Shown: one piece after another, positions 10,192-27,085 of the stretch
How the letters are laid out: every line of letters begins with the position of its first letter
Numbering within the stretch: the first letter of the stretch is position 1
Assembly (NCBI GenBank): GCA_041659785.1
Contig: JBAZXO010000001.1
Span: 86,941 to 150,940 of the forward strand
Direction: 5' to 3'
Length of the DNA: 64,000 nucleotides
DNA from: Minisyncoccota bacterium
Lineage (GTDB): Bacteria > Patescibacteriota > Minisyncoccia > Phycocordibacterales > UBA9973
The notes under the pieces: generated by a model
Databases searched by the model: none
What the model saw: the letters and a program-made list of their open reading frames with translations, nothing else
Told to the model about the DNA's origin: nothing
Position numbers and translations under genes: made by a program

Positions 10192-12060
10192 TTATACTAT
10201 TTGTGACACGCGTAGTGCGTTGATGATGACTATTAGGTCTATCACCTCTTGGATCAAGGCTCCTGCAAGTGGTGAGATGATCCCTACGCTTCCTAATATC
10301 ATTGCGCCTACGCTTAATCCAATACCGATAAAGATACCTTGCTTGGCTACATTGATGGTCTTTTGAGCTATGTGGTAAACATCATGGATACGATTGATGC
10401 CTTCGCCTAATATCACCATGTCGGCGCTCTCGCTCGAAGCTGTCTTCCCTTTTGAGCCTAAAGCAATGCCTACTTCTGCTTGAGCTAGTGCCGGAGCATC
10501 GTTGATACCATCACCCACCATGACACAAGGCCTGTCAGTAGCTGGTATTTCTTTAATTATTCGCAATTTGTCTTCTGGTAAACACTCTGAATGAACTTCT
10601 TTTATATTTAACGCTATCCCTATTCTATCTGCGACACTTTGCTTGTCGCCAGAGAGTAAAATAATTCTCTGAATGCCATCCTTGCGTAATTCATCGAAAA
10701 GTTCATGTGAATCACTACGAAGTTTGTCATCGAGAACAATATAACCCATCACACTTTTTTCATGTGCCAAGAAGACTACAGACTTCCCTTCATTTTTAAA
10801 TTCTTCTAAAGTTTTTTCAATGTCTCCTGGAAGATCCGCGATAAATTTCTTAACATAAGACAATTTTCCAAAGATATATTTTACACCATCCACATTTCCT
10901 TCCACTCCACCACCGAATTCTTCTTTAAAATCTGTAGGAAATGAAAGTTTTAATTTTCTTTTTTCTGCTTCATTTACCATGGCTTCTGCGAGTACATGAG
11001 CGGAGAGCTGGTCGAGTGATCCAGCGATACGTACGAGCTTGTCTTCATCTCCTTCATAAGAGAAAACTCTATCTATCTGTGGTGTGCCTATTGTTACTGT
11101 CCCTGTTTTATCAAAAACGAAGCTTCGCGCTTCGGCGAGCTTTTCTAATGCTCCACCATTCTTCACAATTATTCCATGTTTTGTTATCTTGCTCATGCCT
11201 GAAATTATTGCGATAGGAGTAGCTAATATGAGTGGGCATGGTGTGGCTACCACGAGTACTGCGAGCATCCGAACGATGTCATGTGTCAGAAACCATGTAC
11301 CTCCGGCAAATATGAATGTAGTAATAGTAAAATAAACACTGTATCGATCAGCGAGTCTTATCATTGGTGCACGACTTTGTTCTGCTTCTTGTACTAGTTT
11401 TACTATGTGTGCATAAGAGCTTTCACTTGCGAGCTTCGTCACTAGGAGCGTCATTGTACTGTTTTGATTTACTGTTCCAGAGTATACGAATGATCCTTCA
11501 CTTTTTTGTCCGGGGTTGCTCTCTCCAGACAGAGTTGATTCATCAACATAAGTATTTCCTTCTTCGACTATTCCATCGATAGGTATCACTTCTCCAGGTT
11601 TGACCATGACTTTTTGTCCTATTTGTACTTCTTCTATTGGGACATCTGTAATAGTTTTTCCATCAGTTAAATGAGCTTTGTTGGGTGCTCTCGAAAGTAA
11701 TAGAGATAAGTCTCGACGTGCTCGGAAGAATGCATAGCTCTCGAGTGCTTCTCCACCTGAGAGCATTAAAAGGATTATCAATCCGGCTAAATATTGACCG
11801 AAAAAGAATGTAGCAAATAATGCGACGCTCGCGATCAGGTCGACTCCTAGATTTTTTTTAATTATTTCTTTAATTAAGTTAAACCATATTTGTATTGAGC
11901 CGAAGAAAAGTACCCATTTTAATATTTCTTTCCCTAATTCATCTTTTCCATCTAAATATAAAAAAATATATAAAAGTATAGACAAAATACTCACGAAAGT
12001 TATCACAAGGGTAAGTATTTTTTCTTTTAAAACTGATTTTATAAAATTGTTAAAATTCAT
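10192..12060 (-). CDS. P1B-type heavy-metal translocating P-type ATPase, probably Cu, without N-terminal HMA domain
   Basis: DKTGTVT phosphorylation motif and GDGINDAPAL. The TM motif is TPCPLILATP (atypical CPx). It has 8 predicted TM helices and a neighbouring cupredoxin gene. Confidence 0.8.
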   Translation of the reverse strand: MNFNNFIKSVLKEKILTLVITFVSILSILLYIFLYLDGKDELGKEILKWVLFFGSIQIWFNLIKEIIKKNLGVDLIASVALFATFFFGQYLAGLIILLMLSGGEALESYAFFRARRDLSLLLSRAPNKAHLTDGKTITDVPIEEVQIGQKVMVKPGEVIPIDGIVEEGNTYVDESTLSGESNPGQKSEGSFVYSGTVNQNSTMTLLVTKLASESSYAHIVKLVQEAEQSRAPMIRLADRYSVYFTITTFIFAGGTWFLTHDIVRMLAVLVVATPCPLILATPIAIISGMSKITKHGIIVKNGGALEKLAEARSFVFDKTGTVTIGTPQIDRVFSYEGDEDKLVRIAGSLDQLSAHVLAEAMVNEAEKRKLKLSFPTDFKEEFGGGVEGNVDGVKYIFGKLSYVKKFIADLPGDIEKTLEEFKNEGKSVVFLAHEKSVMGYIVLDDKLRSDSHELFDELRKDGIQRIILLSGDKQSVADRIGIALNIKEVHSECLPEDKLRIIKEIPATDRPCVMVGDGINDAPALAQAEVGIALGSKGKTASSESADMVILGEGINRIHDVYHIAQKTINVAKQGIFIGIGLSVGAMILGSVGIISPLAGALIQEVIDLIVIINALRVSQIV

Positions 12061-14072: not shown

Positions 14073-14366
14073 CTACTTAAGTAAAAGATATAAAATAAAG
14101 AAAAGAGCCACGAAACAAGCGAAGAAGCCTACGGTTTTACCGAAGAAGGCTACAGCTTCTTGTTTATGATTTTCGAAATAGAGATTTAATGGCTCATATA
14201 AAAACAAATATCCCATTACGAGGACAGACAATACGAGGAGCCCTAGCATCCCCATGGGTATCATTATAGTTTTCCCGGGTATATAGGAGCTTGTCGCGTT
14301 TACACCAAGAACGAGGATGGCTATATATAAGGCAGCTGCTAATGCATGTATAAATGGTTTTTTCAT
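14073..14366 (-). CDS. small membrane protein
   Basis: 97-aa ORF with three hydrophobic helices. Confidence 0.3.
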   Translation of the reverse strand: MKKPFIHALAAALYIAILVLGVNATSSYIPGKTIMIPMGMLGLLVLSVLVMGYLFLYEPLNLYFENHKQEAVAFFGKTVGFFACFVALFFILYLLLK

Positions 14367-14383: not shown

Positions 14384-15085
14384 TTATTTAATTGATAAAT
14401 ACATCTTTCTTTTGTCATCCCTGAGCCTTTCTATGGAATACCTTAGTGTAGTTCTTGGCATATTTGTGATGTTTTCGTTTAAAAATTTTTCTAGAGTCGG
14501 CTCGGACTTTTTACCTACTTCACGCAACATCCATCCGACTGCTTTGTGGATGAGGTCGTGTTTATCAGGCAAAAGTATCCTCGCTAATTTTAGCGTATCT
14601 TTAAAATCATTGTTCCTGATAAAAGCAAAAGTAGAAATAATAGCAATTCTCCTGTCCCAGAGTGTCTTAGACTTTACAAGTTTATAAAGCACTGATCTAT
14701 CTTGCTTAAGTAAATAATCACCCAAGATGTAAGGTGCTGAAGTATCCACCAAGTCCCAATTATTTATATTCTTTTTATTTTTTAAATAAAATTTTACTAT
14801 TTCTCCTTTTTCCTTTTCTTTTGCATTTTCGTATTTAAAAACAAGAATCTCTAAAGCGACAAATCGATGTTCGTGCATGCCACTTACGAGAAGCTTCCTC
14901 ACATCATTCAAATTAAGGTTTATATATTTCTTGGCTACCACCCTCTGTGCTGAAACAGTAATCCCTAAAAATTTATCCCCCTCTGCATATTCGCCTTTAC
15001 CGGTTTTGAAAAATCTTTGGAGAATTTTTGCTTTGAGCGGGTTTGCAAGTAATTTTAATTCTTTTATAACGTCAACTGAGTTCAT
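14384..15085 (-). CDS. DNA alkylation repair protein, AlkD/AlkC-like HEAT-repeat glycosylase family
   Basis: HEAT-like repeat protein with WDLVDTSAPYILGDYL and AVGWMLREVGKK, typical of the DNA_alkylation family. Confidence 0.7.
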   Translation of the reverse strand: MNSVDVIKELKLLANPLKAKILQRFFKTGKGEYAEGDKFLGITVSAQRVVAKKYINLNLNDVRKLLVSGMHEHRFVALEILVFKYENAKEKEKGEIVKFYLKNKKNINNWDLVDTSAPYILGDYLLKQDRSVLYKLVKSKTLWDRRIAIISTFAFIRNNDFKDTLKLARILLPDKHDLIHKAVGWMLREVGKKSEPTLEKFLNENITNMPRTTLRYSIERLRDDKRKMYLSIK

Positions 15086-15090
15086 AATTT

Positions 15091-15408
15091 TTAATTAAAT
15101 TCAAACAGAACATCTCGAAAGTTTTCAATCCTGTTATTTTTATCAAGTTTAATTCCCTCTTTTTTGTATAAAACTAGCCTTGTCTTTGCATATTTATCAT
15201 TTAGCCACACCTTCCCATCTGCATATACTATACGATGAAATGGTATGTTCTTTTGCCCCGCCTCATAAGCTTTACCCAAGATGGCAGTGATGCTCTGCGA
15301 AGCCATAGGCCCTGCACCCGCTGCGCGAGCTATCCTGCCATATGTAGTGATTCTTCCTTTAGGAATCTCCAATGCTATTTCCACCACTCGTTCACTAAAA
15401 GTTTTCAT
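15091..15408 (-). CDS. alkyltransferase-like (Atl) protein: MGMT DNA-binding domain lacking the acceptor cysteine
   Basis: MGMT C-domain fold pattern (ITTYGRIA...) but the active-site PCHRV is replaced by PFHRIV. Confidence 0.6.
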   Translation of the reverse strand: MKTFSERVVEIALEIPKGRITTYGRIARAAGAGPMASQSITAILGKAYEAGQKNIPFHRIVYADGKVWLNDKYAKTRLVLYKKEGIKLDKNNRIENFRDVLFEFN

Positions 15409-15410
15409 AA

Positions 15411-15980
15411 CTATACTAAAATTTTAGCCCTTGCTTTTTTCCAATCCTCTTTTAGTAAACCGTATATATTTTGATCATGGAACTTACCGTTTGCCTTGCA
15501 CCTCTTAATTTTTCTTTGTATTCCTTCTAGTTTATACCCCATTTTCAATTGAGTGGCATTAGAAGCTTTGTTATTTGTCGCTACAGTAGAATTTAATCTT
15601 ATAAATTTGAGTTTATTAAACGCATAATCATTTAAAGCTATTTTTGCTTCAGTTATATACCCTTTTCTCCAATATTTTTTATTAATCCAGGACCCCGTTG
15701 TACCGTTTTGAGAATAGGTATCAATTTTATAAATACCAATAGCACCGATAACTTTCTTCTCAGATTTTAACTCAATAAAAAATTCTAGCTCGTTTTTGAT
15801 TTTTTGTTTCCAGCTTTTATTAATCTTTTTAATATATTCTTGTGCATCCTTTTTTGTATAAGGATAAGGTACAGTTGAAAGCATTTTTGAAACGTCATAT
15901 TCACCGGCCCCCTCCATGAGGTCCTTCCAGTCATCTTTTCGGGGTTCTCTGATGATTAATCTCTTGGTTTCTAATTGCAT
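15411..15980 (-). CDS. GNAT family N-acetyltransferase (RimJ/RimL-like)
   Basis: KRLIIREPRKDDWKDL start and acetyl-CoA binding region WINKKYWRKGYITEA. Confidence 0.7.
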   Translation of the reverse strand: MQLETKRLIIREPRKDDWKDLMEGAGEYDVSKMLSTVPYPYTKKDAQEYIKKINKSWKQKIKNELEFFIELKSEKKVIGAIGIYKIDTYSQNGTTGSWINKKYWRKGYITEAKIALNDYAFNKLKFIRLNSTVATNNKASNATQLKMGYKLEGIQRKIKRCKANGKFHDQNIYGLLKEDWKKARAKILV

Positions 15981-15992
15981 AATTTTATTATA

Positions 15993-16229
15993 TCAGATTA
16001 ATTCTAATTTTTCAGACCTTTTTAATCCTTTGATCTTAGCCTCTTCTTTTAAAGCGGTGGATCTGGTTTTAAATTTTTTTGAGTAAACTAACTTTACTGG
16101 TCGGCGACCAGAAGTATATTTCGCGCCTAATTTACTACTATTATGTTCAATGACTCTACGTTTCAAATCTGTAGTAATTCCAGTGTATAAAGTCTTATCA
16201 GCGCACTTGAGAATATATACGTAATACAT
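15993..16229 (-). CDS. GIY-YIG nuclease domain protein (UPF0213/YhbQ-like)
   Basis: MYYVYILKCADKTLYTGITTDLKRRVIEHN. The start was moved to the internal Met at 16229 so that it does not overlap ogt. Confidence 0.7.
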   Translation of the reverse strand: MYYVYILKCADKTLYTGITTDLKRRVIEHNSSKLGAKYTSGRRPVKLVYSKKFKTRSTALKEEAKIKGLKRSEKLELI

Positions 16230-16236
16230 TATTTTA

Positions 16237-16533
16237 TTATATAAAACTAACTCCTTCTTTGAGAAGCAATGCATGTTTAGTTTTGGTTCCGCCTTTTCCA
16301 GAATATCCACCGAGGGAACCATCGCTCCTGATAACTCTGTGACAAGGAATAGTTATAGGCATAGGATTAGCGCCGACAGCATTCGCCACCGCACGCACAG
16401 CCTTCGGCTTGCCGATCTTCTTCGCAAGTTCTTTGTATGTGAGAGTCTTCCCTTTTGGAATATCAAGCAATGCCTTCCAAACCTTTTTCTGGAATGCTGT
16501 ACCCTTTAGTTTTTCAATATCAGTTGAACGCAT
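16237..16533 (-). CDS. ogt: methylated-DNA--protein-cysteine methyltransferase (single-domain Ogt)
   Basis: [24 protein letters not shown]...[25 protein letters not shown] contains the PCHRV active site. Confidence 0.8.
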   Translation of the reverse strand: [98 protein letters not shown]

Positions 16534-16535
16534 TA

Positions 16536-16928
16536 TTATTCAGGCTTGTTGTATTGAGATAGACCAAGGATGTTCCCTTCGGAATCCTTAAACCAAGCGA
16601 GGAAGCCCATAGATCCGTTTTCCCCTAGTGGAGTTTTGCCTTTTACGACAAAACCGCCATTTTCAACAATTTTACTCAAAGCTAAGTCCATATCTGGAAC
16701 ATCAACATAAAACATTGGATACGGCATACTAGGGTCACGCTTACTAGAACCCCCGTTTATAAAACCATATTCAGTTGGCTGCATTTTCGCATCTACCGGC
16801 CCAGTCTGCCAGCTTGTATAACTAAATTGCTCCCACTCAAATGGCTTCCAATCAAAAACGTTCTGATAAAATTTCTTCGCTCGCTCCTTGTCATCCCAAG
16901 GAAATTCAAAATGTGTAACTTTGTTCAT
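16536..16928 (-). CDS. VOC / glyoxalase-bleomycin resistance family protein
   Basis: 130 aa with a VOC fold pattern (FEFPWDD...FYVDVPDMD...GFLAWFKDSEGN). Confidence 0.65.
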   Translation of the reverse strand: MNKVTHFEFPWDDKERAKKFYQNVFDWKPFEWEQFSYTSWQTGPVDAKMQPTEYGFINGGSSKRDPSMPYPMFYVDVPDMDLALSKIVENGGFVVKGKTPLGENGSMGFLAWFKDSEGNILGLSQYNKPE

Positions 16929-16997: not shown

Positions 16998-17068
16998 TGG
17001 GAGATCGTCTAACGGTAGGACAGAGGCCTTTGAAGCCTTTAATCTAGGTTCGATTCCTAGTCTCCCAG
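16998..17068 (+). tRNA. tRNA-Gln (anticodon TTG)
   Basis: Manual fold: acceptor TGGGAGA/TCTCCCA, D-arm GTCT..GGAC, anticodon stem GAGGC/GCCTT with loop CTTTGAA, T-arm CTAGG TTCGATT CCTAG. Confidence 0.85.
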
Positions 17069-17098
17069 CAAGATTAAGTTTTTAGTACTCAAATATAA

Positions 17099-20068
17099 CT
17101 ATTTATTAATTTTCCTTATAACATACTCAAACACTTTTTCTTGAACAAACTTTTTAAGTTCGGGACTTTGATCTAATTTTTGATAAAGATTGAAATGATT
17201 ATCCAATACTCCAACAAGCTCATCTTGAAATAATTGATCAAATTTTAATTTTGCTGAATCTTTACTATTATTTCTAACTGATCCTTGAAGAATTTCACTT
17301 TTAATAAGACGCAGGCTTAAATCATTCAAAATAACTTTATCAGAATCAGTAAAGTTCGTTCCATACCTTTCGTTAATTTCTTTTATTATTTTCGAAAGAA
17401 TGTCGGTTTCTTCTTCAGTTTGCCCTTTTGAACTACCTCCACCCCCCATTGGGTCAATTTCTCCATCCTTATTCTCAAGCAAAACATTTATTTCACCTTT
17501 CTTTTCAATTTTATATGTTTCCATATCAATTGCTTCGAGGACTTCATACGGCAATAAATTTTTTCTTCTTGGTAATTTTCTAATCAAAAATTTTAAGAAT
17601 ATATAGAGTTTCTCAAGTTGAGGGTCTTCAAAGGTAACAATTTGAGAAATGAATGCATACTTTTTTAAGTAATCAAAAGCAGTAGTTTTAAAACCTTCCA
17701 TCTCTTCTTCTGTTAAATTTTCTTCCTTAATTCTTGAGACTACTCCATCAATGATAAAATTAAGCTTATCGGGAGTTGCTCCACCGAAATATTCTTCAGT
17801 AAATCCATTTATCTCAAAATCAGTGAAAAATTTAAAACCACGTACCTCACGCTCAAGGTCATGTAATATATTTGGGTTGGTAGCTTCTGAGAGTATTGTT
17901 GTTGTGTAATAAGGTTGAAAAGATTCTTTTATATCATCAGTTAAATTAACAAAATCAAGTACAAATGTATCATTTTTACCATATGTAGTTCTATTTAAAC
18001 GTGATAGTGTCTGAACTGCATTTACCCCGCCCAGCTTTTTATCGACATACATTACCGAAAGCAATGGTTGATCAAAACCTGTTTGGAATTTTTCAGCAAC
18101 AATCAAGAATTTATATTCATCCTTTTTGAACTCTTCCGCTGTTTTACTTTCTGAAATACCATTCATCTGACCCTCGGTGTATTCTAATTTTGTATCTACA
18201 TCTTTCACAGTACTAGAAAATGCTACGAGAGCTTTGTGGTGATAACCTTTTTCTTTTAGATATTTGTCAAAGGCGATTTTATAACGAACTGCATGCAAGC
18301 GAGATTTAGTGACCACCATCGCTTTTGCCCTACCGCCTATAAGTGATACAATCTTTTCTTCAAAATGTTCAGCCATGATAGCAACCTTTTTATCAATTGC
18401 ATGTTCATGTCTTTCTACATAGCCAATCAAAAGTCTCTGCGCCTTTTTCTTATCGAATTCTGGATCATCTTCTACTTTTTTCAAAAGTCCAAAATATGTC
18501 TCATAGGTCGTGTAATTTTTTAACACATCAAGAATAAACTTTTCTTCGATAGCTTGTTTCATTGAATACAATGAAAAAGGAACAAACTTACCAGTTAAAG
18601 GATCTTCATTTCCAAAAAGCTCAAGCGTTTTTTGTTTTGGGGTTGCAGTGAAAGCAAAGAAGCTTAAATTTGGCGATGCAACCTTTCTTGCCTTCATTCG
18701 CTCAACAATCTGATCTTCTATTGTTTTAAAAGCCTTCTCTTCTTTTTCTTCTTCCACTTGTGCTTCATCTAAAGTCAGCACTTGTCTCAAGTCAGCTGCT
18801 GATTCACCAGACTGTGATGAATGAGCCTCATCGATAATTACCGCAAATTTTTTACCCTCTGTTTGTTCTATCGTCTCTACAATTACAGGAAATTTTTGTA
18901 GAGTACTTGTAATAATCTTTACCCCAGATTTTAATGATTCACTAAGTTCCGCTGATGACTCAACGTGCTTAACTAGACCAGTTATTTGACTGAAGCTTTT
19001 AACCGTATCAGACAATTGCCTATCGAGCACGCGACGATCAGTAACTACAATAACTCCATCAAATACATTTTTATTAGAATTATCATGTAATTCAGCCAAA
19101 CGATGCGCTATCCAAGCGATAGTATTACTTTTTCCAGACCCAGCACTATGCTGAATAAGATAATTTTTTCCTGAACCATTAACCTTTGCATCTACAACGA
19201 CTTTCCTTACAGTATCAAGCTGATGATACCTAGGAAATATGATTTTCTCTTCCTTATATTTTTTTGTATTTTTATCTTCTCTTTCTTCAGTAACTTCTTG
19301 TATAAAATTACCAAGTAAATCAAAAACACTATCTTTAGATAAAATATCTTCCCATAAATAGTGAGTCTTGTATTTCCCTTCTGGCGCATCGGGATTACCA
19401 GACGAGCCTTTATTCCCTTTATTAAATGGTAAAAAGTACGTGGTAAGCCCTGTAAGGCGTGTAGCCATATAAGCTTGCTCAGTATCTACTGCAAAATGAG
19501 TTAAACACCTCTTAAATGACAATAATTTTTCCTTTTGATCACGATCTGTCCTGTATTGGGAAATAGCATTAATAACATTTTGCCCAGTAAATTGATTTTT
19601 AAGTTCCATAGTAAATACAGGCAAGCCATTCACAAAAATAACCATATCAATAGAATTTTCATTTTTCTCACTGTATTTAACTTGTCGCGTTACACTCAAA
19701 ATATTTCCTACATAATCAGCTAATGTTTCAGGGTTTTTATCATTCTCCGGCCTCGAGTACGCCAAATGAATATTTACTCCACGATCTTTAACTCCTTCGC
19801 GAATAACACTCAAGAGCCCGCGAGTAGAAATTTCTTCATCAAGCCTGAGAAGAAATTTCTGCTCCGCTTCCTCCCCATATTGCTCAATAATTTTATCCCA
19901 ACTTTCCTTTTGAGTATTTTTTATAAATTCCAAAACAAGCTCCGTATCCATACAAAGTTTTTTATCATAAGAAGAGTTCTGCCGTTTTCTATATCCTTGT
20001 GCCCCCACTAATTCCCCCTCAATAAATTCCTCAAATCCTGATTCTTTTGTGTTTGTTTTTTGTGTCAT
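17099..20068 (-). CDS. hsdR: Type I restriction enzyme R subunit
   Basis: 989 aa with an HsdR N-terminal domain, IQHSAGSGKSNTIAWIAHR Walker A and IIDEAHSSQSG DEAH box. Confidence 0.9.
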   Translation of the reverse strand: MTQKTNTKESGFEEFIEGELVGAQGYRKRQNSSYDKKLCMDTELVLEFIKNTQKESWDKIIEQYGEEAEQKFLLRLDEEISTRGLLSVIREGVKDRGVNIHLAYSRPENDKNPETLADYVGNILSVTRQVKYSEKNENSIDMVIFVNGLPVFTMELKNQFTGQNVINAISQYRTDRDQKEKLLSFKRCLTHFAVDTEQAYMATRLTGLTTYFLPFNKGNKGSSGNPDAPEGKYKTHYLWEDILSKDSVFDLLGNFIQEVTEEREDKNTKKYKEEKIIFPRYHQLDTVRKVVVDAKVNGSGKNYLIQHSAGSGKSNTIAWIAHRLAELHDNSNKNVFDGVIVVTDRRVLDRQLSDTVKSFSQITGLVKHVESSAELSESLKSGVKIITSTLQKFPVIVETIEQTEGKKFAVIIDEAHSSQSGESAADLRQVLTLDEAQVEEEKEEKAFKTIEDQIVERMKARKVASPNLSFFAFTATPKQKTLELFGNEDPLTGKFVPFSLYSMKQAIEEKFILDVLKNYTTYETYFGLLKKVEDDPEFDKKKAQRLLIGYVERHEHAIDKKVAIMAEHFEEKIVSLIGGRAKAMVVTKSRLHAVRYKIAFDKYLKEKGYHHKALVAFSSTVKDVDTKLEYTEGQMNGISESKTAEEFKKDEYKFLIVAEKFQTGFDQPLLSVMYVDKKLGGVNAVQTLSRLNRTTYGKNDTFVLDFVNLTDDIKESFQPYYTTTILSEATNPNILHDLEREVRGFKFFTDFEINGFTEEYFGGATPDKLNFIIDGVVSRIKEENLTEEEMEGFKTTAFDYLKKYAFISQIVTFEDPQLEKLYIFLKFLIRKLPRRKNLLPYEVLEAIDMETYKIEKKGEINVLLENKDGEIDPMGGGGSSKGQTEEETDILSKIIKEINERYGTNFTDSDKVILNDLSLRLIKSEILQGSVRNNSKDSAKLKFDQLFQDELVGVLDNHFNLYQKLDQSPELKKFVQEKVFEYVIRKINK

Positions 20069-20093
20069 ATTATTTTTATCTATTATAAAGATA

Positions 20094-20513
20094 TCATCTT
20101 ATGATAATTTTATCACTAAATTCTCCTTTTAATGCTTCTTTTAAATCACCGTCAGCTGTCACAACTTCAATATATCCATCATCAAATAAAGTTCTCTGAG
20201 TTTGAAGAATTGTCGCGATAGATGCCATAATTGAGATATCTCCTAACCCTTTTAATCCATAAAATGAAACAATATTATTATATTTATTTAAAAAAGTCTT
20301 GTAGTTTTCTAAATATTTTACTTCATCAAAGGAATCTTTTTGAATATCAATAAATTTTATTCTTTGAATTTTGTTTCTATAATTTGGAGATAATGATTTA
20401 AGAATTTCTATTTCATCTTTTAATTCTTCTGTAATAAAAAATTCATCAGATGAATCAAATGATCTTTCATCTCTTATAAATTTATTTAAAATATTTGTAT
20501 CTATGATTTTCAT
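20094..20513 (-). CDS. PIN-like domain protein embedded in the R-M operon
   Basis: MKIIDTNIL N-terminus with acidic residues (D5, E~29, D~92, TADGD~121) spaced as in PIN nucleases. There is a 4-nt ATGA overlap with the upstream ORF. Confidence 0.45.
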   Translation of the reverse strand: MKIIDTNILNKFIRDERSFDSSDEFFITEELKDEIEILKSLSPNYRNKIQRIKFIDIQKDSFDEVKYLENYKTFLNKYNNIVSFYGLKGLGDISIMASIATILQTQRTLFDDGYIEVVTADGDLKEALKGEFSDKIIIR

Positions 20514-21715
20514 ATTTCTGATCGATATTCAATCCATTTTTCCTTTCTAAATCGGCCAAATATTATCATTTGTGCTTGATTAGGATAAATGGAATTATTC
20601 TTAATGGCTGTATTAACTTTATTAAAAGCAACATCTCCACAAAATTTTTTTACTGAAGTTGATATATGAGGATGTGTAAACCATTTTTTTATATCTTGGA
20701 AAATACTGGGTTCTCTTTCAGGAAGTTTTAATAATTCTTGAAGTTCTTTATCAATTTTTTTCCTAAAACGCAAAATAAATAATATAGCGGTGTAAGATAT
20801 CTTATACTGTTCTTTAAGATTATTGATCAACTCCTTGTTAATATTTTCTGTTTTTATATTATCTGTGACAGATTTTGGTAGTAGAAATTCAGATACAACA
20901 TCATTCATTAACTTAAATTTTTTATCATCCTTTATTTTTTTAATCGAATAACTTTCAATAGAATGTGAGTATTCTTCCATACCAATAACCACCAATAAAT
21001 AAAGTAACGTATATATCTGCCTAAAATGATTTTCGTCTGGATTTATTTCACTTGGTAAAAATACAAAGGGTATTTTTTTATCTTTTACTACAAAGCCACT
21101 GGTATTTCTGTAAAGATCGAAGGTGTTTTTTATTTCAGGCAGAATACCATTTGTTCTTACACCTTGAGAAATATTAATATTCTCTTTACCTTGTATTTTT
21201 TCAATAAGATATTCTTTTGACTTTTCAGCGGAGTCTCTCGTTCTAAAATAATTAAGATCAATATTAAAATAATTTATTATATAATTCACAGCCTCTTGAA
21301 TACTTTTAGATTTTAAAGAACCTGAAAAATCACACATAAAATTATCTGGCAATTGCAACACAACAAACGATTGTATTCTAATTTGTCTATCTATTATTCT
21401 TTTTGACGTTGTGTCACCCCTACCTTTTCTCTTATGTATAGTAAGTAAATCTTTAGGAAATTTGTCCAATCTATTGTCTTCAATGTTTTTTAATTCTTTT
21501 TTTAAATTATTTTCATCCAACAAAAACATTTGCCAAGGTAAATGAATTTTTTCACTTATATCTTTCAGTTCATTGAATGTTATTGATCCTTTTTCAAAAG
21601 CATTTTTGAATACCTCATGTTCAGTAAGTTTTTCTTCAGGATAAAAATTTAATAAAGTTTTAAAAACCTCATCATCTAATTCTACTGCCTTGGTTGTTAC
21701 AGATTTCAAAATCAT
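20510..21715 (-). CDS. hypothetical 401-aa protein embedded between hsdS and hsdR
   Basis: Long ORF with AT-rich codon usage like its neighbours. It has no Walker A, no HExxH and no motif I recognise. Confidence 0.45.
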   Translation of the reverse strand: MILKSVTTKAVELDDEVFKTLLNFYPEEKLTEHEVFKNAFEKGSITFNELKDISEKIHLPWQMFLLDENNLKKELKNIEDNRLDKFPKDLLTIHKRKGRGDTTSKRIIDRQIRIQSFVVLQLPDNFMCDFSGSLKSKSIQEAVNYIINYFNIDLNYFRTRDSAEKSKEYLIEKIQGKENINISQGVRTNGILPEIKNTFDLYRNTSGFVVKDKKIPFVFLPSEINPDENHFRQIYTLLYLLVVIGMEEYSHSIESYSIKKIKDDKKFKLMNDVVSEFLLPKSVTDNIKTENINKELINNLKEQYKISYTAILFILRFRKKIDKELQELLKLPEREPSIFQDIKKWFTHPHISTSVKKFCGDVAFNKVNTAIKNNSIYPNQAQMIIFGRFRKEKWIEYRSEI

Positions 21716-21719
21716 AAAT

Positions 21720-22949
21720 TTATACTTTTACTTTCCCAGTTACAACATTTGAAATAAGAGAAAATTTATATTCTTCCAAAAGTTTAATTGATGTTTTAAT
21801 ATTTTTCCTCACTAAGTTCATTTTTATTAATAATGATTCTATTTTTTCTTCAATATCCTTTGACGGAACTCTTATTTTTTCTAATAATAAAATTTTTATA
21901 TTCAATGGCTTATTACGTCCAGCAGAACCTCTTGAGGATTCATTAAGTATATGATCACCAAATTTTGTCATTAGTAGAGCTAATAAGTATTCAGTTTTTA
22001 CAATACCGTCCCTTAATAAATAATACCTATGCGATACAACACACCCACTTTCATCTTCACCAGCAAAAGCAACTGCACCTTCCCACGCAAATTGTCCACT
22101 TATAATAAGATCTCTTGAAATTACTTTATAGAAATCTGATTCTTTTATGTCTTTACCCAACTGAAAATCTTTATGAAAAAGTCCTCTGCCTCTATTATAT
22201 AAACCTAGAGCAGTGTATTCAGAATAATCTTCTATATTAATTGGATTTTCGGATAATTTAAATAAATTTTTAATTCTAATAATTTTTCCTTTACCTTTTA
22301 TTTGTTCATTCATAGCAATTGAAACAATCTCCTCTTTTAAGAGTTCGATCTGCTTTTCTTTTTTCTCAATAATTTCCTCAATCATTATTGTTTTATCGTC
22401 AATATAGTCTGCAATTTTTGTTTGCTGTTCTGGTGAAATTATTAAAATTGGGAAATTAACCAGTGTATCATCTTTTAATGTCCAACGATGATCCACAGAA
22501 ACACCGTTACCAAAAGGATGGAATATACCCTCAAAATAATGTTTTTGAAAAAAATAATTATAATATTGTGAGTTTGTCTTTTTATCTTTTTTTCTTAATG
22601 TAGAATAGGCAGGACTAATTATGCCTTCATATTTTGAGGCATCAACAAAACCTCTTACGAGATCCATGGGATTTAAAACTATGTCTCCTTTTATTATTTT
22701 TCGATACCCTTCGTAACTTGCCGCAATTTGTCCTTCATTATTTGAAACATCCCTAGTTTTTATACCACTCAAAGTAAGTGATAATATTTCAGATTCAGAA
22801 TTATTAAAAGATCGTTCTTTCAAGAGATTAAAAACTTCTTTAACTTTTCCAACTTTCCATTCCTTTGGAATTTTCCCCAACCATTCAACCCCAGAATCTT
22901 TATATTCAGAATATTTCTCATATTTTTTTGTAAGGTTTAATGTTTGCAT
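21720..22949 (-). CDS. hsdS: Type I restriction-modification specificity subunit
   Basis: 409 aa with two target-recognition domains separated by conserved repeats. Typical HsdS N-terminus: ...WLGKIPKEWKV.KVKEV. Confidence 0.85.
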   Translation of the reverse strand: MQTLNLTKKYEKYSEYKDSGVEWLGKIPKEWKVGKVKEVFNLLKERSFNNSESEILSLTLSGIKTRDVSNNEGQIAASYEGYRKIIKGDIVLNPMDLVRGFVDASKYEGIISPAYSTLRKKDKKTNSQYYNYFFQKHYFEGIFHPFGNGVSVDHRWTLKDDTLVNFPILIISPEQQTKIADYIDDKTIMIEEIIEKKEKQIELLKEEIVSIAMNEQIKGKGKIIRIKNLFKLSENPINIEDYSEYTALGLYNRGRGLFHKDFQLGKDIKESDFYKVISRDLIISGQFAWEGAVAFAGEDESGCVVSHRYYLLRDGIVKTEYLLALLMTKFGDHILNESSRGSAGRNKPLNIKILLLEKIRVPSKDIEEKIESLLIKMNLVRKNIKTSIKLLEEYKFSLISNVVTGKVKV

Positions 22950-22950
22950 A

Positions 22951-24705
22951 CTATAATTGCTTCAGTAAATCAAGAAGTTCATTCTCTACCTTTTCAATAT
23001 CTTTTTCTATTGCTTCCAAACTTCTTGGCGCTTCGTATTTGTAGAAATAGCGGGTAAATGGAATTTCATAACCTACAATACCAGTTTTTCCATCTTTATG
23101 GTCCACAACAGATTCATTAATCCAAGCATCTGGAACATAAGGTTTTACCTCTTTGTCGAAGTACTCTTTAATATCCATATCATAGGGCACATTTTCATAG
23201 TCTCGTAACGATTTATCTATTTCAATATTGCCTTTTTTATCTTTAGAAATTTTTCCATCAACCATAAGTGGACGTTCTATTTGAATTTGCCTATATGCAA
23301 AATCAGTCGTTTTAAAAATCTTAGAAAATTCATTCTCTTCAAACTTTTCATAAAGTTCTTCTATTCTCTTTTTTGATTCAGCATCAATCTCATGACGCTT
23401 GCTGCCAAGACTCTTACGAGTCTTTTTGAAAAATGTACGTGCATCTATGAGCTGAACTTTACCCTTCTTTTCTTTTGGTTTTCTATTGGTTACAAACCAT
23501 AAATATGTATTTATGCCAGTGTTATAGAAAAGTTGATCAGGTAGTGCCACGATTGTTTCCAATAGATCTTTTTCTAATATCCATCTTCGTATTTCACTTT
23601 CTCCGCTTCCTGCATCTCCAGTAAATAGTGGTGAACCATTGTGAACTATAGCAATACGCGACCCGCCATCTTTTTCAGGCTTCATTTTAGAAATGAGATG
23701 TTGTAAAAATAAAAGCTGACCGTCGGAAATACGAGGAGTACCAGCACCAAAACGTCCAGCATATCCACGAGACGCTTCACGTTCTACGACATCTTTATCT
23801 TTTTTCCAATCAACTCCATAAGGAGGATTTGAGATCCCGTAATCAAAAACTTCACCAAAAAATTGATCATTGGATAAAGTGCTAGCCTTAGAATGATCTT
23901 TTTCTCCGCCACGAATAAGATCTGGGTTGTCTCCCTTTATCAACATATCAGACTTTGCCACAGCATAAGTGACTGAATTTAATTCTTGACCATATAAAAA
24001 TATATCTGCATCTGGATTGATGTTTCCTAAAATATAATCTTTAGCAACTGAAAGCATCCCAGACGTGCCGCATGCAGGGTCATATATCTTTTTAATAACA
24101 TGTGGTTTTTTAAGGTCTTTTATGTCAGGAAGAAATAATAACTTTGTCATTACCCCTATGACGTCTCGTGGCGTGTAGTGTTCTCCAGCTGTTTCATTAG
24201 ACATTTCAGAAAACTTTCTAAGTAATTCTTCAAAAATTTGTCCCATTTGGTGGTTATCTACTTTTGATGGGTGTAGATCAACTTTATTTATTTCCTGAAT
24301 TACCAAATAAAGAAGATTACCACCTTCAAGACGTTCAAGCTGTTTACTGAAATCAAATTTCTCAAAGATATCTTGAACATTCTTACTATATCCATTTAAA
24401 TATTGTTTGAAATTTTTTGCTAAATGCTTTGGTTCTCCGAGTAAATTTCTAAAATCATATTCTGAGATATTATAAAAGGCCGCCCCAGATGTTCTCTTGA
24501 GAATAGGATCAAGATCGTTTATTTTTCCCTTATATTCATTATATTTTACAAGAACTTTCTCTTTACTGTCTGCAAGGATAGAATCAAGGCGTTTTAAAAC
24601 CAATAAGGGTAGTATTACATCTTGGTATTCATGTTGTTTCCAGCCACCACGCAAGATGTCCGCTATACTCCAGATCGTCGATGCTTTTTGATTAAAATTT
24701 TCCAT
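22951..24705 (-). CDS. hsdM: Type I restriction-modification DNA methyltransferase (N6-adenine)
   Basis: HsdM_N domain, SAM-binding DPACGTSGML and catalytic NPPYG. Confidence 0.9.
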   Translation of the reverse strand: MENFNQKASTIWSIADILRGGWKQHEYQDVILPLLVLKRLDSILADSKEKVLVKYNEYKGKINDLDPILKRTSGAAFYNISEYDFRNLLGEPKHLAKNFKQYLNGYSKNVQDIFEKFDFSKQLERLEGGNLLYLVIQEINKVDLHPSKVDNHQMGQIFEELLRKFSEMSNETAGEHYTPRDVIGVMTKLLFLPDIKDLKKPHVIKKIYDPACGTSGMLSVAKDYILGNINPDADIFLYGQELNSVTYAVAKSDMLIKGDNPDLIRGGEKDHSKASTLSNDQFFGEVFDYGISNPPYGVDWKKDKDVVEREASRGYAGRFGAGTPRISDGQLLFLQHLISKMKPEKDGGSRIAIVHNGSPLFTGDAGSGESEIRRWILEKDLLETIVALPDQLFYNTGINTYLWFVTNRKPKEKKGKVQLIDARTFFKKTRKSLGSKRHEIDAESKKRIEELYEKFEENEFSKIFKTTDFAYRQIQIERPLMVDGKISKDKKGNIEIDKSLRDYENVPYDMDIKEYFDKEVKPYVPDAWINESVVDHKDGKTGIVGYEIPFTRYFYKYEAPRSLEAIEKDIEKVENELLDLLKQL

Positions 24706-24716
24706 ATTGTTTATTA

Positions 24717-25853
24717 TTATTTAGTAAATAAATGCAAATACTCTTTTAAATAAAAGATCCTATCTTTTCTCCGACCTGTTTTTTCGGTAAATAATCCTAA
24801 TTTTTCAAAATCTTCAGCGATAGCAGATGCTGTAGGAAAAGTAACAGAAAGCATGGACTCAATGTCTCTTATAGTGACAACTGGTTGAGAAAACAGTAAT
24901 CGTAAAAGTTCCTTGCCAAGTTTTTGGCGTTTTACACCCATACCTTTTTCTATAGCAGTCTCATATTTCTTTCGTAGATCTATTATTTTTTCTAATGTTT
25001 CTCGCGCATTCTTTGCAGTTTCAGATACTCCAGTAAGAAAAAAACGAACCCAATGTTCTTTATCGTTTGTCTCACGGACACGTGAAAGAGCATCATAATA
25101 TTCAGTACGATGTTTTTCAAAAAAATCGGAAATATAGAGAGTGGGTTTTTTTATAATACCCAAACTCACCAAATGAAGAGTTATAAGAAGCCTACCAATA
25201 CGTCCATTCCCATCCAAAAATGGATGTATCGTTTCAAATTGATAATGGGAAAGGGCAATTTTTATAATATCAGGTATATTTACATTTTTATTGTGCCAAA
25301 ATTTTTCAAGATCACTAAGTAACTCAGAAATCTCCTCATGATGAGGAGGAATAAAAACAGCATCTTTAAGAGTGGCTCCGCCAATCCAATTTTGGCTTCG
25401 ACGAATTTCTCCTGGTAATTTTGTATACCCGCGTACGCTTGAAAGAAGAACCTTATGTGTATCTTTTACAAGTCTTATTGAAAGAGGAAGTTTTTCAAGC
25501 TCCGCAATAGAAAAATTTATTGCCTTAACATAATTTTGTACTTCTTCCCAATCATCTCTTTTCTCTGGATTAATTTCAAGCTCAGGTAAAAGGGCTTCAT
25601 CAAGCTTTGTATGAGTTCCTTCAATTTTACTTGAAGTGGTAGCTTCTTTTGCAATATGCATTTTTATAAAAAAATCTACGTCAGGTATTAATTTAGAAAA
25701 AGCATTGAGCTCGCCCAAATATCGCATAGAATCAGAAAGAAGTAGATCAATTCTTTTATCTGCCCATTCAAAATTTCTATTTACCAATGAAGGTTTAAAA
25801 CTTTTATAACCATCATTTTGTCTATATGTTCCTGACTTATATTTATCAGCCAT
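24717..25853 (-). CDS. Fic family protein (class II, N-terminal inhibitory motif)
   Basis: [14 protein letters not shown] Fic motif, an upstream SSKIEG matching [ST]xxxE[GN], and a C-terminal winged-helix region. Confidence 0.85.
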
Positions 25854-25948
25854 AAAGACAGTATATACCTTTAATATCCAAAAGTCAAATTAAAGATTAA
25901 AGGCTTAACTTTTAATTAGAACCTTTATAATTAAAATCAGTGTTTTAA

Positions 25949-27040
25949 TCATTTATCCACAGAAATTATCTTAACTAGTGCCAGCTCAAGCGGAAGTTCG
26001 GCGATAAAAGTATTATCCATATTTTGATATGCTTCAAGCAACACAGCCAACGTAGAAGAAGTAAATAAATGGCCGTCTTTGCCTGCCCCGTTTGAAGCCG
26101 AAAGCTTTCGTTCGGGGTCTTCCTTTATCAATGCCTTAAGAAATGCTAAATCTTCTTCGCCTAAATCCCCTGCCATATCCTTTTCTAATTTCGGAGCATA
26201 ACGCAAGATTATTGCCATTCGGAATTTCTGGATGATGAGCTTGAAATATAATTTCATATCTAAATTTGATTCTGATGCAATTCGCACAGCAGTGATTCCT
26301 TTTTCTAAATCTTTCTCTGCGATTGCACTTATAAAATCATTTACGAGGGTCGTCTTCGGTGCGCCAGTTATCTTCTCTATATCTTCTCTCTCAATCTTTT
26401 TACTCTTTTTGTCTTTACTGGAGAAATTTAAAACTTTCTGAAGCTCACCTAGGCCGTCACGATATGAACCATCTGCAAGGATAGCGAGGAGCTCGGCTGC
26501 ATCCTTTTCTAAATCATAACCTTCTTCCTTCGCAACGTATAAAATTATATTCTTTAACATGAGCTCGGAAGCCTTTTTGAAAGTGAAAACCTGGCAACGA
26601 GAAACAATAGTCTCAGGGACTTTATGCAGTTCTGTCGTAGCTAAAATAAAGATGACATGCTTTGGTGGCTCTTCGAGAGTCTTCAAGAGTGCACCCCAGG
26701 CGTCCTTGGAGAGCATGTGTACTTCATCTATGATGTAAACTTTGTATTTCGAATCGAATGGCAACACTCGCACGCCGTCGCGAAGTTCTTTTATATCTTC
26801 AATTCCTCTGTTCGAGGCGGCATCTATCTCATAGAGGTCATTTACTGATACACCTATCTCCTTTGCAAAGATACGGGCTACGGTCGTCTTGCCTGTGCCT
26901 CTACTACCTACGAAAAGGTATGCATGAGAGACCTTATTTGACTCCACAGAGCTTTCTAATACATCTATGATGTGGTCTTGCCCGAAGACTTGATCCCATT
27001 TCTGTGGCCTGTATTTACGATATAAAGCTAAGTCGTGCAT
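25949..27040 (-). CDS. dnaX: DNA polymerase III subunit gamma/tau (short form)
   Basis: LYRKYRPQ, GSRGTGKTT Walker A, IIDEVHMLS and SRCQVF. The start is placed at MHDLALYRK; the ORF track extends it 15 nt further, to 27055. Confidence 0.85.
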   Translation of the reverse strand: MHDLALYRKYRPQKWDQVFGQDHIIDVLESSVESNKVSHAYLFVGSRGTGKTTVARIFAKEIGVSVNDLYEIDAASNRGIEDIKELRDGVRVLPFDSKYKVYIIDEVHMLSKDAWGALLKTLEEPPKHVIFILATTELHKVPETIVSRCQVFTFKKASELMLKNIILYVAKEEGYDLEKDAAELLAILADGSYRDGLGELQKVLNFSSKDKKSKKIEREDIEKITGAPKTTLVNDFISAIAEKDLEKGITAVRIASESNLDMKLYFKLIIQKFRMAIILRYAPKLEKDMAGDLGEEDLAFLKALIKEDPERKLSASNGAGKDGHLFTSSTLAVLLEAYQNMDNTFIAELPLELALVKIISVDK

Positions 27041-27085
27041 CCGATAATTGTACATAAAAAAAACAAAACTAGCAAAATTTTATAA

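Follow-up and report, generated by a model that had tools for sequence, protein, structure and literature searches.

Type I restriction–modification enzymes methylate host DNA and cut unmodified incoming DNA, and in Patescibacteria, whose genomes are tiny, few immune systems beyond restriction–modification have been recognised. Most genes found nested within Type I systems have a defence function, with PrrC as the classic case (Payne et al. 2024, bioRxiv 10.1101/2024.01.29.577857). HTH-DUF955 genes have been described upstream of PIN-like genes, and PIN genes have been found coupled to Type I systems (Matelska et al. 2017, PMC5499597). An ImmA-type antitoxin hub that includes RosmerTA has also been reported (Ernits et al. 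2023, PMC10440598; Millman et al. 2022, bioRxiv 10.1101/2022.05.11.491447), and SoFic is both toxic and defensive (PMC12249575). Here we analyse a six-gene block within a 64,000-nucleotide stretch of a Minisyncoccota bacterium contig (hereafter, the window). The block is probably best explained as an acquired anti-phage cassette that combines a Fic toxin and a Type I enzyme with a toxin–antitoxin or abortive-infection module, X–PIN, embedded in the restriction system. Although systems of this kind are known, this particular X–PIN pair is absent from current databases.

An accessory Type I cassette between dnaX and tRNA-Gln

The block (17099-25853) consists of six minus-strand open reading frames, transcribed in the order fic, hsdM, hsdS, X, PIN and hsdR, and lies between two native genes:

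16998-17069, plus strand: tRNA-Gln(ttg), identified by ARAGORN and Rfam; native boundary gene, convergent with hsdR
17099-20068, minus strand: hsdR, 989 aa; Type I restriction/translocase subunit
20094-20513, minus strand: PIN, 139 aa; PIN-fold (VapC-like) nuclease, proposed toxin/effector; 4-nt overlap between its start and the stop of X
20510-21715, minus strand: X, 401 aa; ImmA/IrrE (M78)-fold protein, predicted to be catalytically dead; proposed antitoxin/sensor partner of PIN
21720-22949, minus strand: hsdS, 409 aa; Type I specificity subunit
22951-24705, minus strand: hsdM, 584 aa; Type I methyltransferase subunit
24717-25853, minus strand: fic, 378 aa; SoFic-like class II Fic, probable AMPylase; leader gene
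25860-25888, minus strand: candidate operon promoter TTGACT-17-TATACT just upstream of fic; pattern match from a consensus scan (10/12 matches)
25949-27055, minus strand: dnaX, with DNA_pol3_delta2 and dnaX_nterm matches; native boundary gene and anchor for the synteny comparison

From fic to hsdR, the intergenic gaps are 11, 1, 4, -4 and 25 nt, in agreement with the initial annotation, which had described six same-strand genes separated by no more than 25 nt. Its proposal of a single operon fits this spacing, the lack of any terminator-like site on the coding strand of the block and the promoter-like site upstream of fic. The arrangement is consistent with a single predicted transcript of all six genes, and hsdR may have its own internal promoter. 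The tRNA-Gln gene expected just past hsdR was located 29 nt from the hsdR stop, and the alkylation-repair genes expected on its far side are indeed present (an AlkD-like DNA_alkylation protein and two Ogt/ATL-type DNA_binding_1 proteins), together with GNAT, GIY-YIG and glyoxalase/bleomycin-resistance proteins. On the upstream side, 95 nt separate dnaX from fic.

Comparison with relatives that share about 10 kb of synteny upstream of dnaX supports the earlier view of the block as accessory. The block is absent between dnaX and tRNA-Gln in these genomes: the tRNA gene follows dnaX after 26-234 nt in four of them (L026, L027, L031 and L032), and other syntenic relatives carry unrelated cargo after dnaX, namely a cyclase (L025) or DsbD/thioredoxin genes (L028). 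The tRNA-Gln of the window is identical over 72/72 nt to that of L026, which lies about 100 nt after dnaX, with its orientation relative to dnaX inverted. Base composition deviates as well, the block being AT-richer (31.4% GC, versus 36.5% in the rest of the window); among genes encoding at least 100 aa, three of the four with the lowest GC content are hsdS, X and PIN, with PIN lowest of all. By contrast, the suggestion that the tRNA served as an integration target found no support. Pfam and PADLOC searches identified no integrase or recombinase among the six genes, a search of the window for the 3′ end of the tRNA, allowing up to 3 mismatches, gave one match and no second copy, and no direct repeat was found at the block boundaries. 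Because both an integrase and a repeat of the tRNA 3′ end are missing, the block is not a classical tRNA-integrated island.

All three restriction subunits have Type I features. HsdM contains HsdM_N and N6_Mtase domains (Pfam), matches PADLOC MTase_I at 6.6e-247 and has NPPY at residue 293. HsdS has Methylase_S (Pfam), and several PADLOC Specificity_I models match two stretches of it, corresponding to two target-recognition regions. HsdR combines an N-terminal nuclease domain with an SF2 motor: it contains HSDR_N, SWI2_SNF2, ResIII and T1R_D3-like domains (Pfam) as well as GSGKS at 310, DEAH at 413 and D141...E155-x-K157, and matches TIGR00348 (hsdR) at 6.3e-62 and 210 bits, below the 284.55-bit cut-off of that model.

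The class II Fic gene reported immediately before hsdM was recovered as described, at a gap of 11 nt. The protein matches the Pfam Fic_N and Fic domains and carries, in the same polypeptide, the inhibitory motif S74SKIEG and the active-site motif starting at H210; it is assigned to class II because it has both the N-terminal [S/T]xxxE[G/N] motif and HPFx[D/E]GN[G/K]RxxR. The PADLOC SoFic model is matched at 2.5e-115 over profile positions 5-359 of 361, and the NCBIfam SoFic equivalog NF046030 at 170.7 bits, below its 550-bit cut-off. Fic is a probable AMPylase. In all seven contexts sampled (7/7), only 8-12 nt separate fic from a downstream hsdM that belongs to the same Type I lineage, and fic is thus an integral part of the cassette. 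Phase variation, also raised earlier for Fic proteins next to Type I methylases, found no support: searches for long simple repeats, spare hsdS copies, invertible repeats and a recombinase were all negative.

Other Patescibacteria carry the cassette at different, non-tRNA chromosomal sites, with the layout Fic, HsdM, cargo slot 1, HsdS, cargo slot 2 and HsdR. One copy lies beside rpsB-tsf (L106; identities of 81% for Fic, 79% for HsdM, 71% for X, 58% for PIN and 78% for HsdR) and another beside pilM (L108; Fic 50%, HsdM 72%, X 68%, HsdR 68%). Further Fic-led Type I cassettes, with Fic 80-93%, HsdM 71-94% and HsdR 81-91% identical, hold different cargo and include sister cassettes without X–PIN. 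In these, the slot between hsdM and hsdS contains PemK, NYN with a 409-aa protein, or DUF2130, and the slot between hsdS and hsdR contains DUF3800 or unrelated proteins of 357, 358 and 413 aa; in the genome studied here, the first slot is empty and the second holds X–PIN. The hsdM/hsdS and hsdS/hsdR junctions are swappable cargo slots. HsdS is only 27-35% identical between cassettes that are otherwise 70-94% identical, the exception being L115 (79%). Most likely, the block represents a self-contained type of anti-phage cassette circulating among Patescibacteria, which was acquired horizontally into the variable dnaX/tRNA-Gln gap without the use of a tRNA-specific integrase.

The X–PIN pair

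The most unusual content of the block is the X–PIN pair rather than Fic, a point that the initial annotation had missed. X matched no Pfam, NCBIfam or PADLOC model. Two independent methods assign it an IrrE/CapP/PrpR-like fold, with IrrE/PprI-DdrO, CapP-CapH and Mycobacterium tuberculosis PrpR as the best structural matches. PrpR is a transcription factor and a known non-proteolytic use of the IrrE-type fold, in ligand sensing. No histidine is conserved across the 53 members of the X family, and the HE..H string is absent from the entire length of 67 of the 69 superfamily sequences; P0227 has it at residue 78, outside the aligned helix, and P0285 is the sole sequence with HELCH at the aligned helix. 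Profile searches give the same picture: X has no match to Pfam PF06114 even at E<=10, and its distant relatives score 13.8-20.5 bits against a cut-off of 22, which P0285 alone passes (56.3 bits). Because the HExxH zinc-binding motif has been lost, X presumably cannot act as a protease. A strongly conserved basic segment (R82, K95, R96, S104, K105, R106, D109, R110 and R113) might serve for nucleic-acid binding; helix-turn-helix matches are weak. The superfamily comprises about 500 clusters at 50% identity, and every named core-family member derives from a Patescibacteria-type bin.

PIN has a VapC-like PIN fold in which D5, E34, D92 and D121 are invariant among 27 diverse partners, none of which matches a Pfam, NCBIfam or PADLOC model. 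In 20/20 genome loci where the sequence continues past X, PIN comes next, and the two genes nearly always overlap by 4 nt; the identities of X and PIN to their counterparts in the window co-vary from locus to locus (r = 0.98). The two are obligately paired and move as a unit between unrelated hosts. The pair occurs inside Type I systems with HsdR identities of only 23-28% (L006, L008, L013 and L110), 3′ of hsdR (L011), and beside MmeI (L104; X 80% identical), a Type ISP enzyme (L020), an EcoRI-type methylase with GmrSD/HNH (L111), Shedu (L004) and a DUF2075/Schlafen helicase (L021). It is often found at the 3′ end of an operon or away from nuclease genes, and some loci adjoin serine recombinases. 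In a small, non-redundant sample from metagenome bins (n=23), 10/23 contexts are Type I, 14/23 any restriction–modification and 17/23 restriction–modification or other defence; the remaining 6/23 have no recognised defence neighbour. In one locus (L023), X appears frameshifted and PIN is intact, which is awkward for an essential antitoxin unless it reflects an assembly error.

Candidate roles of X–PIN within the cassette

In the anti-phage cassette that we favour, the Type I enzyme would methylate host DNA and cleave unmodified incoming DNA, and Fic would act as an auto-inhibited, SoFic-like AMPylase toxin, a kind reported in the literature to cause abortive infection. X, without a zinc site, would be a binding or sensing partner, translationally coupled to PIN, that keeps the nuclease inactive; infection, or the loss or inhibition of the cassette, would release PIN, which would cleave RNA and stop growth. 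That X neutralises PIN is our inference, drawn from the order of the two genes, their overlap and their joint inheritance. With five times the size of a typical VapB and no protease motif, X departs too far from the known ImmA antitoxins for their mechanism simply to carry over. We tentatively suggest, as a speculative extension, that the X family consists of non-catalytic sensors of infection (for example, of ssDNA or anti-restriction proteins) that gate the PIN nuclease. If so, Patescibacteria would have a second line of defence inside their restriction systems, which fires when restriction is overwhelmed or inhibited, and the ImmA/IrrE/CapP fold would gain a mode of signalling unlike repressor cleavage.

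Three other roles can be envisioned for the pair. X could guard the restriction system in the manner of PrrC, monitoring the Type I complex or restriction products such as ssDNA and freeing PIN once a phage anti-restriction protein inactivates the enzyme or restriction fails. Like prrC, X–PIN separates hsdS from hsdR, and does so in at least nine independent Type I loci that represent two very different HsdR lineages; the nearest folds of X (IrrE/PprI and CapP) are ssDNA-stimulated sensors (PMC10904395; bioRxiv 10.1101/2022.04.27.489752), and the basic segment spanning R82-R113 might contact nucleic acid. However, the pair also occurs after hsdR, beside single-chain MmeI, Type ISP or Shedu, or with no restriction genes nearby; because of these other positions, an obligatory physical partnership with HsdMS is unlikely, and we regard such a guard as rather unlikely overall. 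Somewhat less probable still is that X–PIN, and perhaps Fic, are plain addiction modules that maintain the mobile cassette in a streamlined genome by killing cells that lose it, and have no direct anti-phage role. The layout, with the partner gene ahead of a PIN toxin gene and a 4-nt overlap between them, is that of a type II toxin–antitoxin system; classic toxins such as PemK occupy equivalent slots in other copies of the cassette, and serine recombinases flank some of the loci. Yet a conserved, multi-domain partner of 400 aa with a sensor-type fold exceeds the needs of simple neutralisation, and the bias towards restriction–modification and defence fits the published rule that embedded genes mostly serve defence (bioRxiv 10.1101/2024.01.29.577857). 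Addiction and anti-phage roles of X–PIN are not mutually exclusive.

It is very improbable that X regulates hsdR transcription or processing like the C-proteins of Type II systems, delaying restriction in a new cell as PIN trims the polycistronic mRNA, given the weak helix-turn-helix matches, the frequent location of the pair at operon 3′ ends or far from nuclease genes, and the sister cassettes that do without it.

Comparison with described defence and toxin–antitoxin systems

The advance is incremental rather than conceptual, since SoFic, ImmA-like proteins paired with PIN toxins and the embedding of defence genes have all been described before. Nonetheless, because the pair is invisible to Pfam, NCBIfam and PADLOC, present defence censuses of Patescibacteria miss it, and the Fic-led Type I lineage with its two interchangeable slots offers a concrete place to seek new defence genes in these poorly charted bacteria. 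With X, the ImmA/IrrE/CapP sensors would gain a branch that does not rely on proteolysis, and this branch would connect restriction to abortive infection in a testable way, much as PrrC does.

The Fic protein described here resembles SoFic (Millman et al. 2022; Wu et al. 2025, PMC12249575) in its full-length PADLOC match and in carrying both the Fic motif and the inhibitory helix motif of class II. Unlike SoFic, it falls below the NCBIfam equivalog cut-off and is not standalone, occupying a constant place at the head of a Type I operon, and the 11-nt gap before hsdM is too short for a small downstream AS1-like gene. As with PrrC/EcoprrI and the rlo genes, X–PIN lies between hsdS and hsdR on the same strand and includes a nuclease effector; it differs in not being exclusive to Type I loci. 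Homology to PrrC itself was rejected, as neither X nor PIN has an ABC-ATPase or anticodon-nuclease domain. Like VapBC, the pair combines a toxin of VapC-like fold, in which four acidic residues are conserved, with a partner encoded ahead of it and translationally coupled to it. Assignment to VapBC was nevertheless discarded, since the partner is a 401-aa protein with a pseudo-peptidase core and not an AbrB, RHH or Phd-fold VapB of about 80 aa. RosmerTA was likewise set aside, neither X nor PIN matching any PADLOC family in a release that may not include RmrA/RmrT models.

The ImmA/IrrE proteins (Peptidase_M78, COG2856) have the same kind of fold as X, which differs in lacking HExxH and any PF06114 match above the gathering score. 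IrrE and CapP are both active metalloproteases that cleave a separate repressor, whereas X has no catalytic motif and is paired with a nuclease. Closest in architecture are the HTH-DUF955 (COG2856)-PIN modules and the ImmA hub, in which a large ImmA/IrrE-fold gene likewise lies directly upstream of a PIN nuclease, in defence contexts that include Type I operons. The published modules retain HExxH and are proposed to work by proteolysis; by contrast, X and nearly all of its superfamily have lost this motif, and X and PIN reach no Pfam or PADLOC model.

A Fic-led Type I cassette between dnaX and tRNA-Gln

The six genes fic, hsdM, hsdS, X, PIN and hsdR all lie on the minus strand, with intergenic gaps of 11, 1, 4, -4 and 25 nt, as the initial annotation had described. 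The block and its immediate surroundings comprise the following features:

17099-25853, minus strand: six-gene block, fic to hsdR
24717-25853, minus strand: fic, with Pfam Fic_N and Fic domains
22951-24705, minus strand: hsdM
20510-21715, minus strand: X, a 401-aa protein
20094-20513, minus strand: PIN, a 139-aa VapC-like PIN-fold protein
25860-25888: promoter-like site next to fic
25949-27055: dnaX, ending 95 nt upstream of fic
16998-17069, plus strand: tRNA-Gln(ttg), 29 nt past the hsdR stop

The spacing of the genes, the absence of terminator-like sites from the coding strand and the promoter-like site are consistent with a predicted single operon. Fic, encoded ahead of hsdM, contains both the inhibitory motif (S74-SKIEG) and the catalytic motif (at H210), in agreement with its assignment to class II; it is matched over its whole length by the PADLOC SoFic model (2.5e-115) and scores 170.7 bits against the NCBIfam SoFic equivalog, below the 550-bit cut-off. 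HsdM, HsdS and HsdR each display the expected domains in Pfam and PADLOC scans, and the Type I motifs NPPY, GSGKS and DEAH are intact, with the D...ExK nuclease motif also present. Source names of identical database proteins identify the host as a Candidatus Paceibacterota (Patescibacteria/CPR) metagenome-assembled genome. HsdM is 584 aa long, compared with 660-675 aa in the sister cassettes described below, the difference lying around residues 483-490; tblastn alignments break at residues ~483-505, which implies an extra segment of ~50-80 aa in the relatives, either gained by them or lost from the window copy. DnaX is just 368 aa. It aligns with the N-terminal, clamp-loader portion of the models and apparently lacks the long C-terminal extension (tau) that bacterial DnaX proteins typically have.

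Relatives were found by scanning metagenome contigs with DnaX (50-74% identity), and in two of these loci, L025 and L026, gene order follows that of the window over ~10 kb upstream of dnaX. The tRNA-Gln gene follows dnaX after ~100 nt in L026, 234 nt in L031, 26 nt in L032 and 147 nt in L027, and the DNA 3' of dnaX comprises 1.1 kb with a cyclase gene in L025, 3.1 kb with DsbD/thioredoxin genes in L028 and 0.75 kb in L030. The restriction block was not found 3' of dnaX in any of these loci (L025-L028 and L030-L032); therefore, the 8.8-kb block is accessory, as had been proposed, and the interval between dnaX and tRNA-Gln is variable. The base composition fits this status, with a GC content of 31.4% in the block versus 36.5% in the rest of the window: PIN (23.1%, the lowest), X (26.5%) and hsdS (28.5%) fall within the four lowest of the window genes of at least 100 aa, and fic, hsdM and hsdR deviate from the window mean by no more than about one SD.

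The window tRNA-Gln is identical at 72/72 nt to that of L026 (11115-11186), the closest syntenic relative, and inverted relative to dnaX, so that some local rearrangement took place during or after insertion. The two genes are on opposite strands in the window, L027 and L028 and co-directional in L025, L026 and L030-L032; thus, the orientation of tRNA-Gln has flipped within the clade. The suggestion that this tRNA served as an integration target is not demonstrable: the block contains no integrase gene, a search of the window (up to 3 mismatches allowed) did not find the 3' end of tRNA-Gln duplicated, and direct or inverted repeats are missing from the block boundaries, so that classical att-site integration is rejected; elsewhere the cassette is not beside a tRNA. 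Phase variation likewise found no support and is rejected, given that the scan for homopolymers, tandem repeats and invertible hsdS copies yielded C6 as the sole homopolymer at threshold, tandem arrays all scoring <=42 and no invertible-hsdS signal. The gene description and the accessory nature of the block given in the initial annotation thus stand, and tRNA integration and phase variation do not.

Across tRNA-Gln, as annotated, lie repair-type genes (AlkD-like, two Ogt/ATL-like, GNAT, GIY-YIG and glyoxalase/bleomycin-resistance). This alkylation-repair/detoxification cluster (14384-16928) looks variable as well: in L025 and L026, the stretch between tRNA-Gln and the homologue of 14073-14366 holds no full-length homologue of its genes. 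In L006, another Type I locus with X-PIN is followed, 8 kb downstream, by an AlkD-like homologue (62% identity). At 1883-2761 on the minus strand, two small ORFs of 100 and 115 aa (GC 23.8% and 29.9%) resemble X-PIN in composition and may represent another foreign insert.

A recurring cassette with two slots

The cassette recurs at other sites, as Fic-HsdM-(133 aa)-HsdS-X-PIN-HsdR adjoining rpsB-tsf (L106) and as Fic-HsdM-HsdS-X-PIN-HsdR adjoining pilM (L108). Identity to the window is 50-81% for Fic and 68-79% for HsdM, X and HsdR but only 27-30% for HsdS, as expected for swapped specificity domains. Four further contexts belong to the same Type I lineage (HsdM 71-94% and HsdR 81-91% identical), with Fic 8-12 nt upstream of hsdM. 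Fic homologues are numerous: at least 120 clusters are listed, none of these below 75% identity and almost all with a length of precisely 378 aa; nearly all the named clusters among those listed come from Patescibacteria-type bins, and identity reaches 93% in bins labelled Doudnabacteria, Yonathbacteria, Pacebacteria and 'Tenericutes'. This conservation, far tighter than that of X or PIN and also tighter than that of DnaX in the sampled relatives (50-74%), suggests recent spread or strong constraint.

Different genes are nested in the sister cassettes, which therefore point to the architecture Fic-HsdM-[slot 1]-HsdS-[slot 2]-HsdR; in the window, slot 1 is empty and slot 2 holds X-PIN.

Contents of the two slots in sister cassettes
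Slot 1 (hsdM|hsdS): PemK; NYN plus a 409-aa protein; DUF2130
Slot 1 coordinates: L113 13183-13626; L114 13312-15643; L115 13142-14347; L116 13133-14317
Slot 2 (hsdS|hsdR): DUF3800; unrelated 357-, 358- and 413-aa proteins
Slot 2 proteins: L113 15051-16127 (358 aa); L115 15593-16666 (357 aa); L116 15628-16869 (413 aa)

Of the four sister cassettes L113-L116, two have DUF2130 in slot 1; the others have a PemK toxin or an NYN nuclease with the 409-aa unknown protein. The slot 2 proteins of L113, L115 and L116 have no Pfam match in the contig tables and are candidates for further embedded defence genes; those of L113 and L115 are 35% identical. The possibility that these ~360-410-aa proteins are diverged X was rejected, as they gave no HMM match and are unrelated. 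Same-strand embedded genes are frequent in Type I systems and mostly serve defence, with PrrC as the best-known example (bioRxiv 10.1101/2024.01.29.577857), a pattern with which the two-slot architecture agrees.

X and PIN form a portable module

Searches of Pfam (E<=10), NCBIfam, PADLOC, PHROGs and PDB sequences returned no match for X and were uninformative for PIN. A first search nevertheless delineated an X core family of at least 155 clusters at 90% identity, the source-named ones mostly from Patescibacteria and a few labelled 'ImmA (M78)' by JGI, and an exhaustive profile search extended it to a superfamily of 499 representative clusters (57 at E<=1e-30), mostly ~400 aa. No histidine is conserved in the 53-sequence X alignment, and in an alignment of 69 superfamily sequences the helix with ARSFTLLHELCHIFLG in the outlier P0285 corresponds to FRQIYTLLYLLVVIG in X and has the consensus GRxIFTLxLLxVxI. 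Among these 69, only P0285 passes Pfam Peptidase_M78 (56 bits); 27/69 match it at E<=0.1, below threshold bar P0285, and in members scanned individually the weak matches fall in one region (~residues 210-325). From the lost motif and this sub-threshold signal, X is therefore a diverged ImmA/IrrE-fold protein that has lost its zinc site, that is, a pseudo-peptidase. With HExxH missing, a role as an active ImmA protease is excluded.

A PIN homologue follows X in 20/20 genome loci retaining downstream DNA, nearly always with a 4-nt overlap, and the identities of X and PIN co-vary over loci (r = 0.98). Even a distant X relative (P0196 in L112, 26% identical) precedes a 133-aa protein in which the DTN, E, GxxD and TxD motifs are preserved. 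X and PIN are thus one module. A 398-aa and 128-aa pair upstream in L112, tested as a second copy, is not X-PIN.

The module is portable. In L006, L008, L013 and L110 it sits inside Type I systems with an HsdR that shares only 23-28% identity with the window protein, and in L011 it comes after hsdR. Its other neighbours include MmeI (L104, X 80% identical), a Type ISP enzyme (L020), an EcoRI-type methylase with GmrSD/HNH (L111), an N6_N4 methylase with recombinases (L012), Shedu SduA (L004), a DUF2075/Schlafen helicase (L021) and a STAND-type ATPase (L014). By our count, 10 of 23 non-redundant contexts are Type I, 14 involve any restriction-modification system and 17 restriction-modification or other defence; the sample is modest, and every relative is a metagenome bin. 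The few relatives with non-CPR labels (Flavobacteriaceae, Methylophilus and Rhizomicrobium) may reflect mis-binning or real transfer. X found no counterpart by tblastn in the phage and plasmid collections, so nothing indicates that phages or plasmids carry X-PIN. Large serine recombinases adjoin several copies that lie outside Type I systems (L112 1592-3226, L009 6730-8487 and L012 11663-12991), suggesting that X-PIN also rides on small mobile elements. In two divergent Type I loci with X-PIN, the gene immediately after hsdR encodes a 189-aa protein (L011 9394-9963 and L013 8556-9125; 56% identical), and comparable positions in other loci hold unannotated small genes of 174 aa (L104, between MmeI and X), 180 aa (L106, after hsdR) and 96 aa (L020, between the Type ISP gene and X).

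Possible roles of X-PIN and known counterparts

Type I enzymes restrict foreign DNA and methylate self DNA. SoFic-type Fic proteins are toxic AMPylases that bring about abortive infection (PMC12249575; bioRxiv 10.1101/2022.05.11.491447). The evidence best supports reading X-PIN as a module for toxin-antitoxin function or abortive infection, with PIN as the putative RNase effector and X as a partner that would neutralise PIN or act as a sensor. This reading draws on the partner gene coming first with translational coupling, the constant co-inheritance of the two genes, the intact PIN site and published precedents, namely antitoxins of the ImmA fold that occur together with PIN-like toxins and have links to Type I systems (PMC5499597, PMC10440598). 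The published ImmA-PIN models presuppose proteolysis, of which X is incapable; we therefore propose that X acts by binding. The nearest folds of X are IrrE/PprI and CapP, and PrpR represents a ligand-sensing, non-proteolytic use of the IrrE-like fold. IrrE/PprI and CapP are ssDNA-stimulated sensors (PMC10904395; bioRxiv 10.1101/2022.04.27.489752). These precedents make a sensor role for X plausible. In L023 (10001-11168), X is broken by an apparent frameshift near 10500 and PIN is intact with all four acidic residues kept. Either the assembly is wrong here or PIN is naturally without its guard, the latter being a problem for the antitoxin model.

Three other explanations can be envisioned. The position of X-PIN within a Type I locus makes it attractive to view the pair as a PrrC-like guard that reads out restriction failure, but the module also occurs outside Type I loci, and we regard such a guard as unlikely. 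Somewhat less probable still is that X-PIN serves purely for addiction to the cassette, and the weak proposal that X is a C-protein-like regulator of hsdR seems very improbable.

Our results identify the six-gene block as a genuine accessory defence cassette. New here are a Type I cassette of Patescibacteria that starts with Fic and has two slots, and an uncatalogued pair of a pseudo-ImmA and a PIN protein; embedded defence genes, and ImmA-type partners joined to PIN toxins, are already known kinds.
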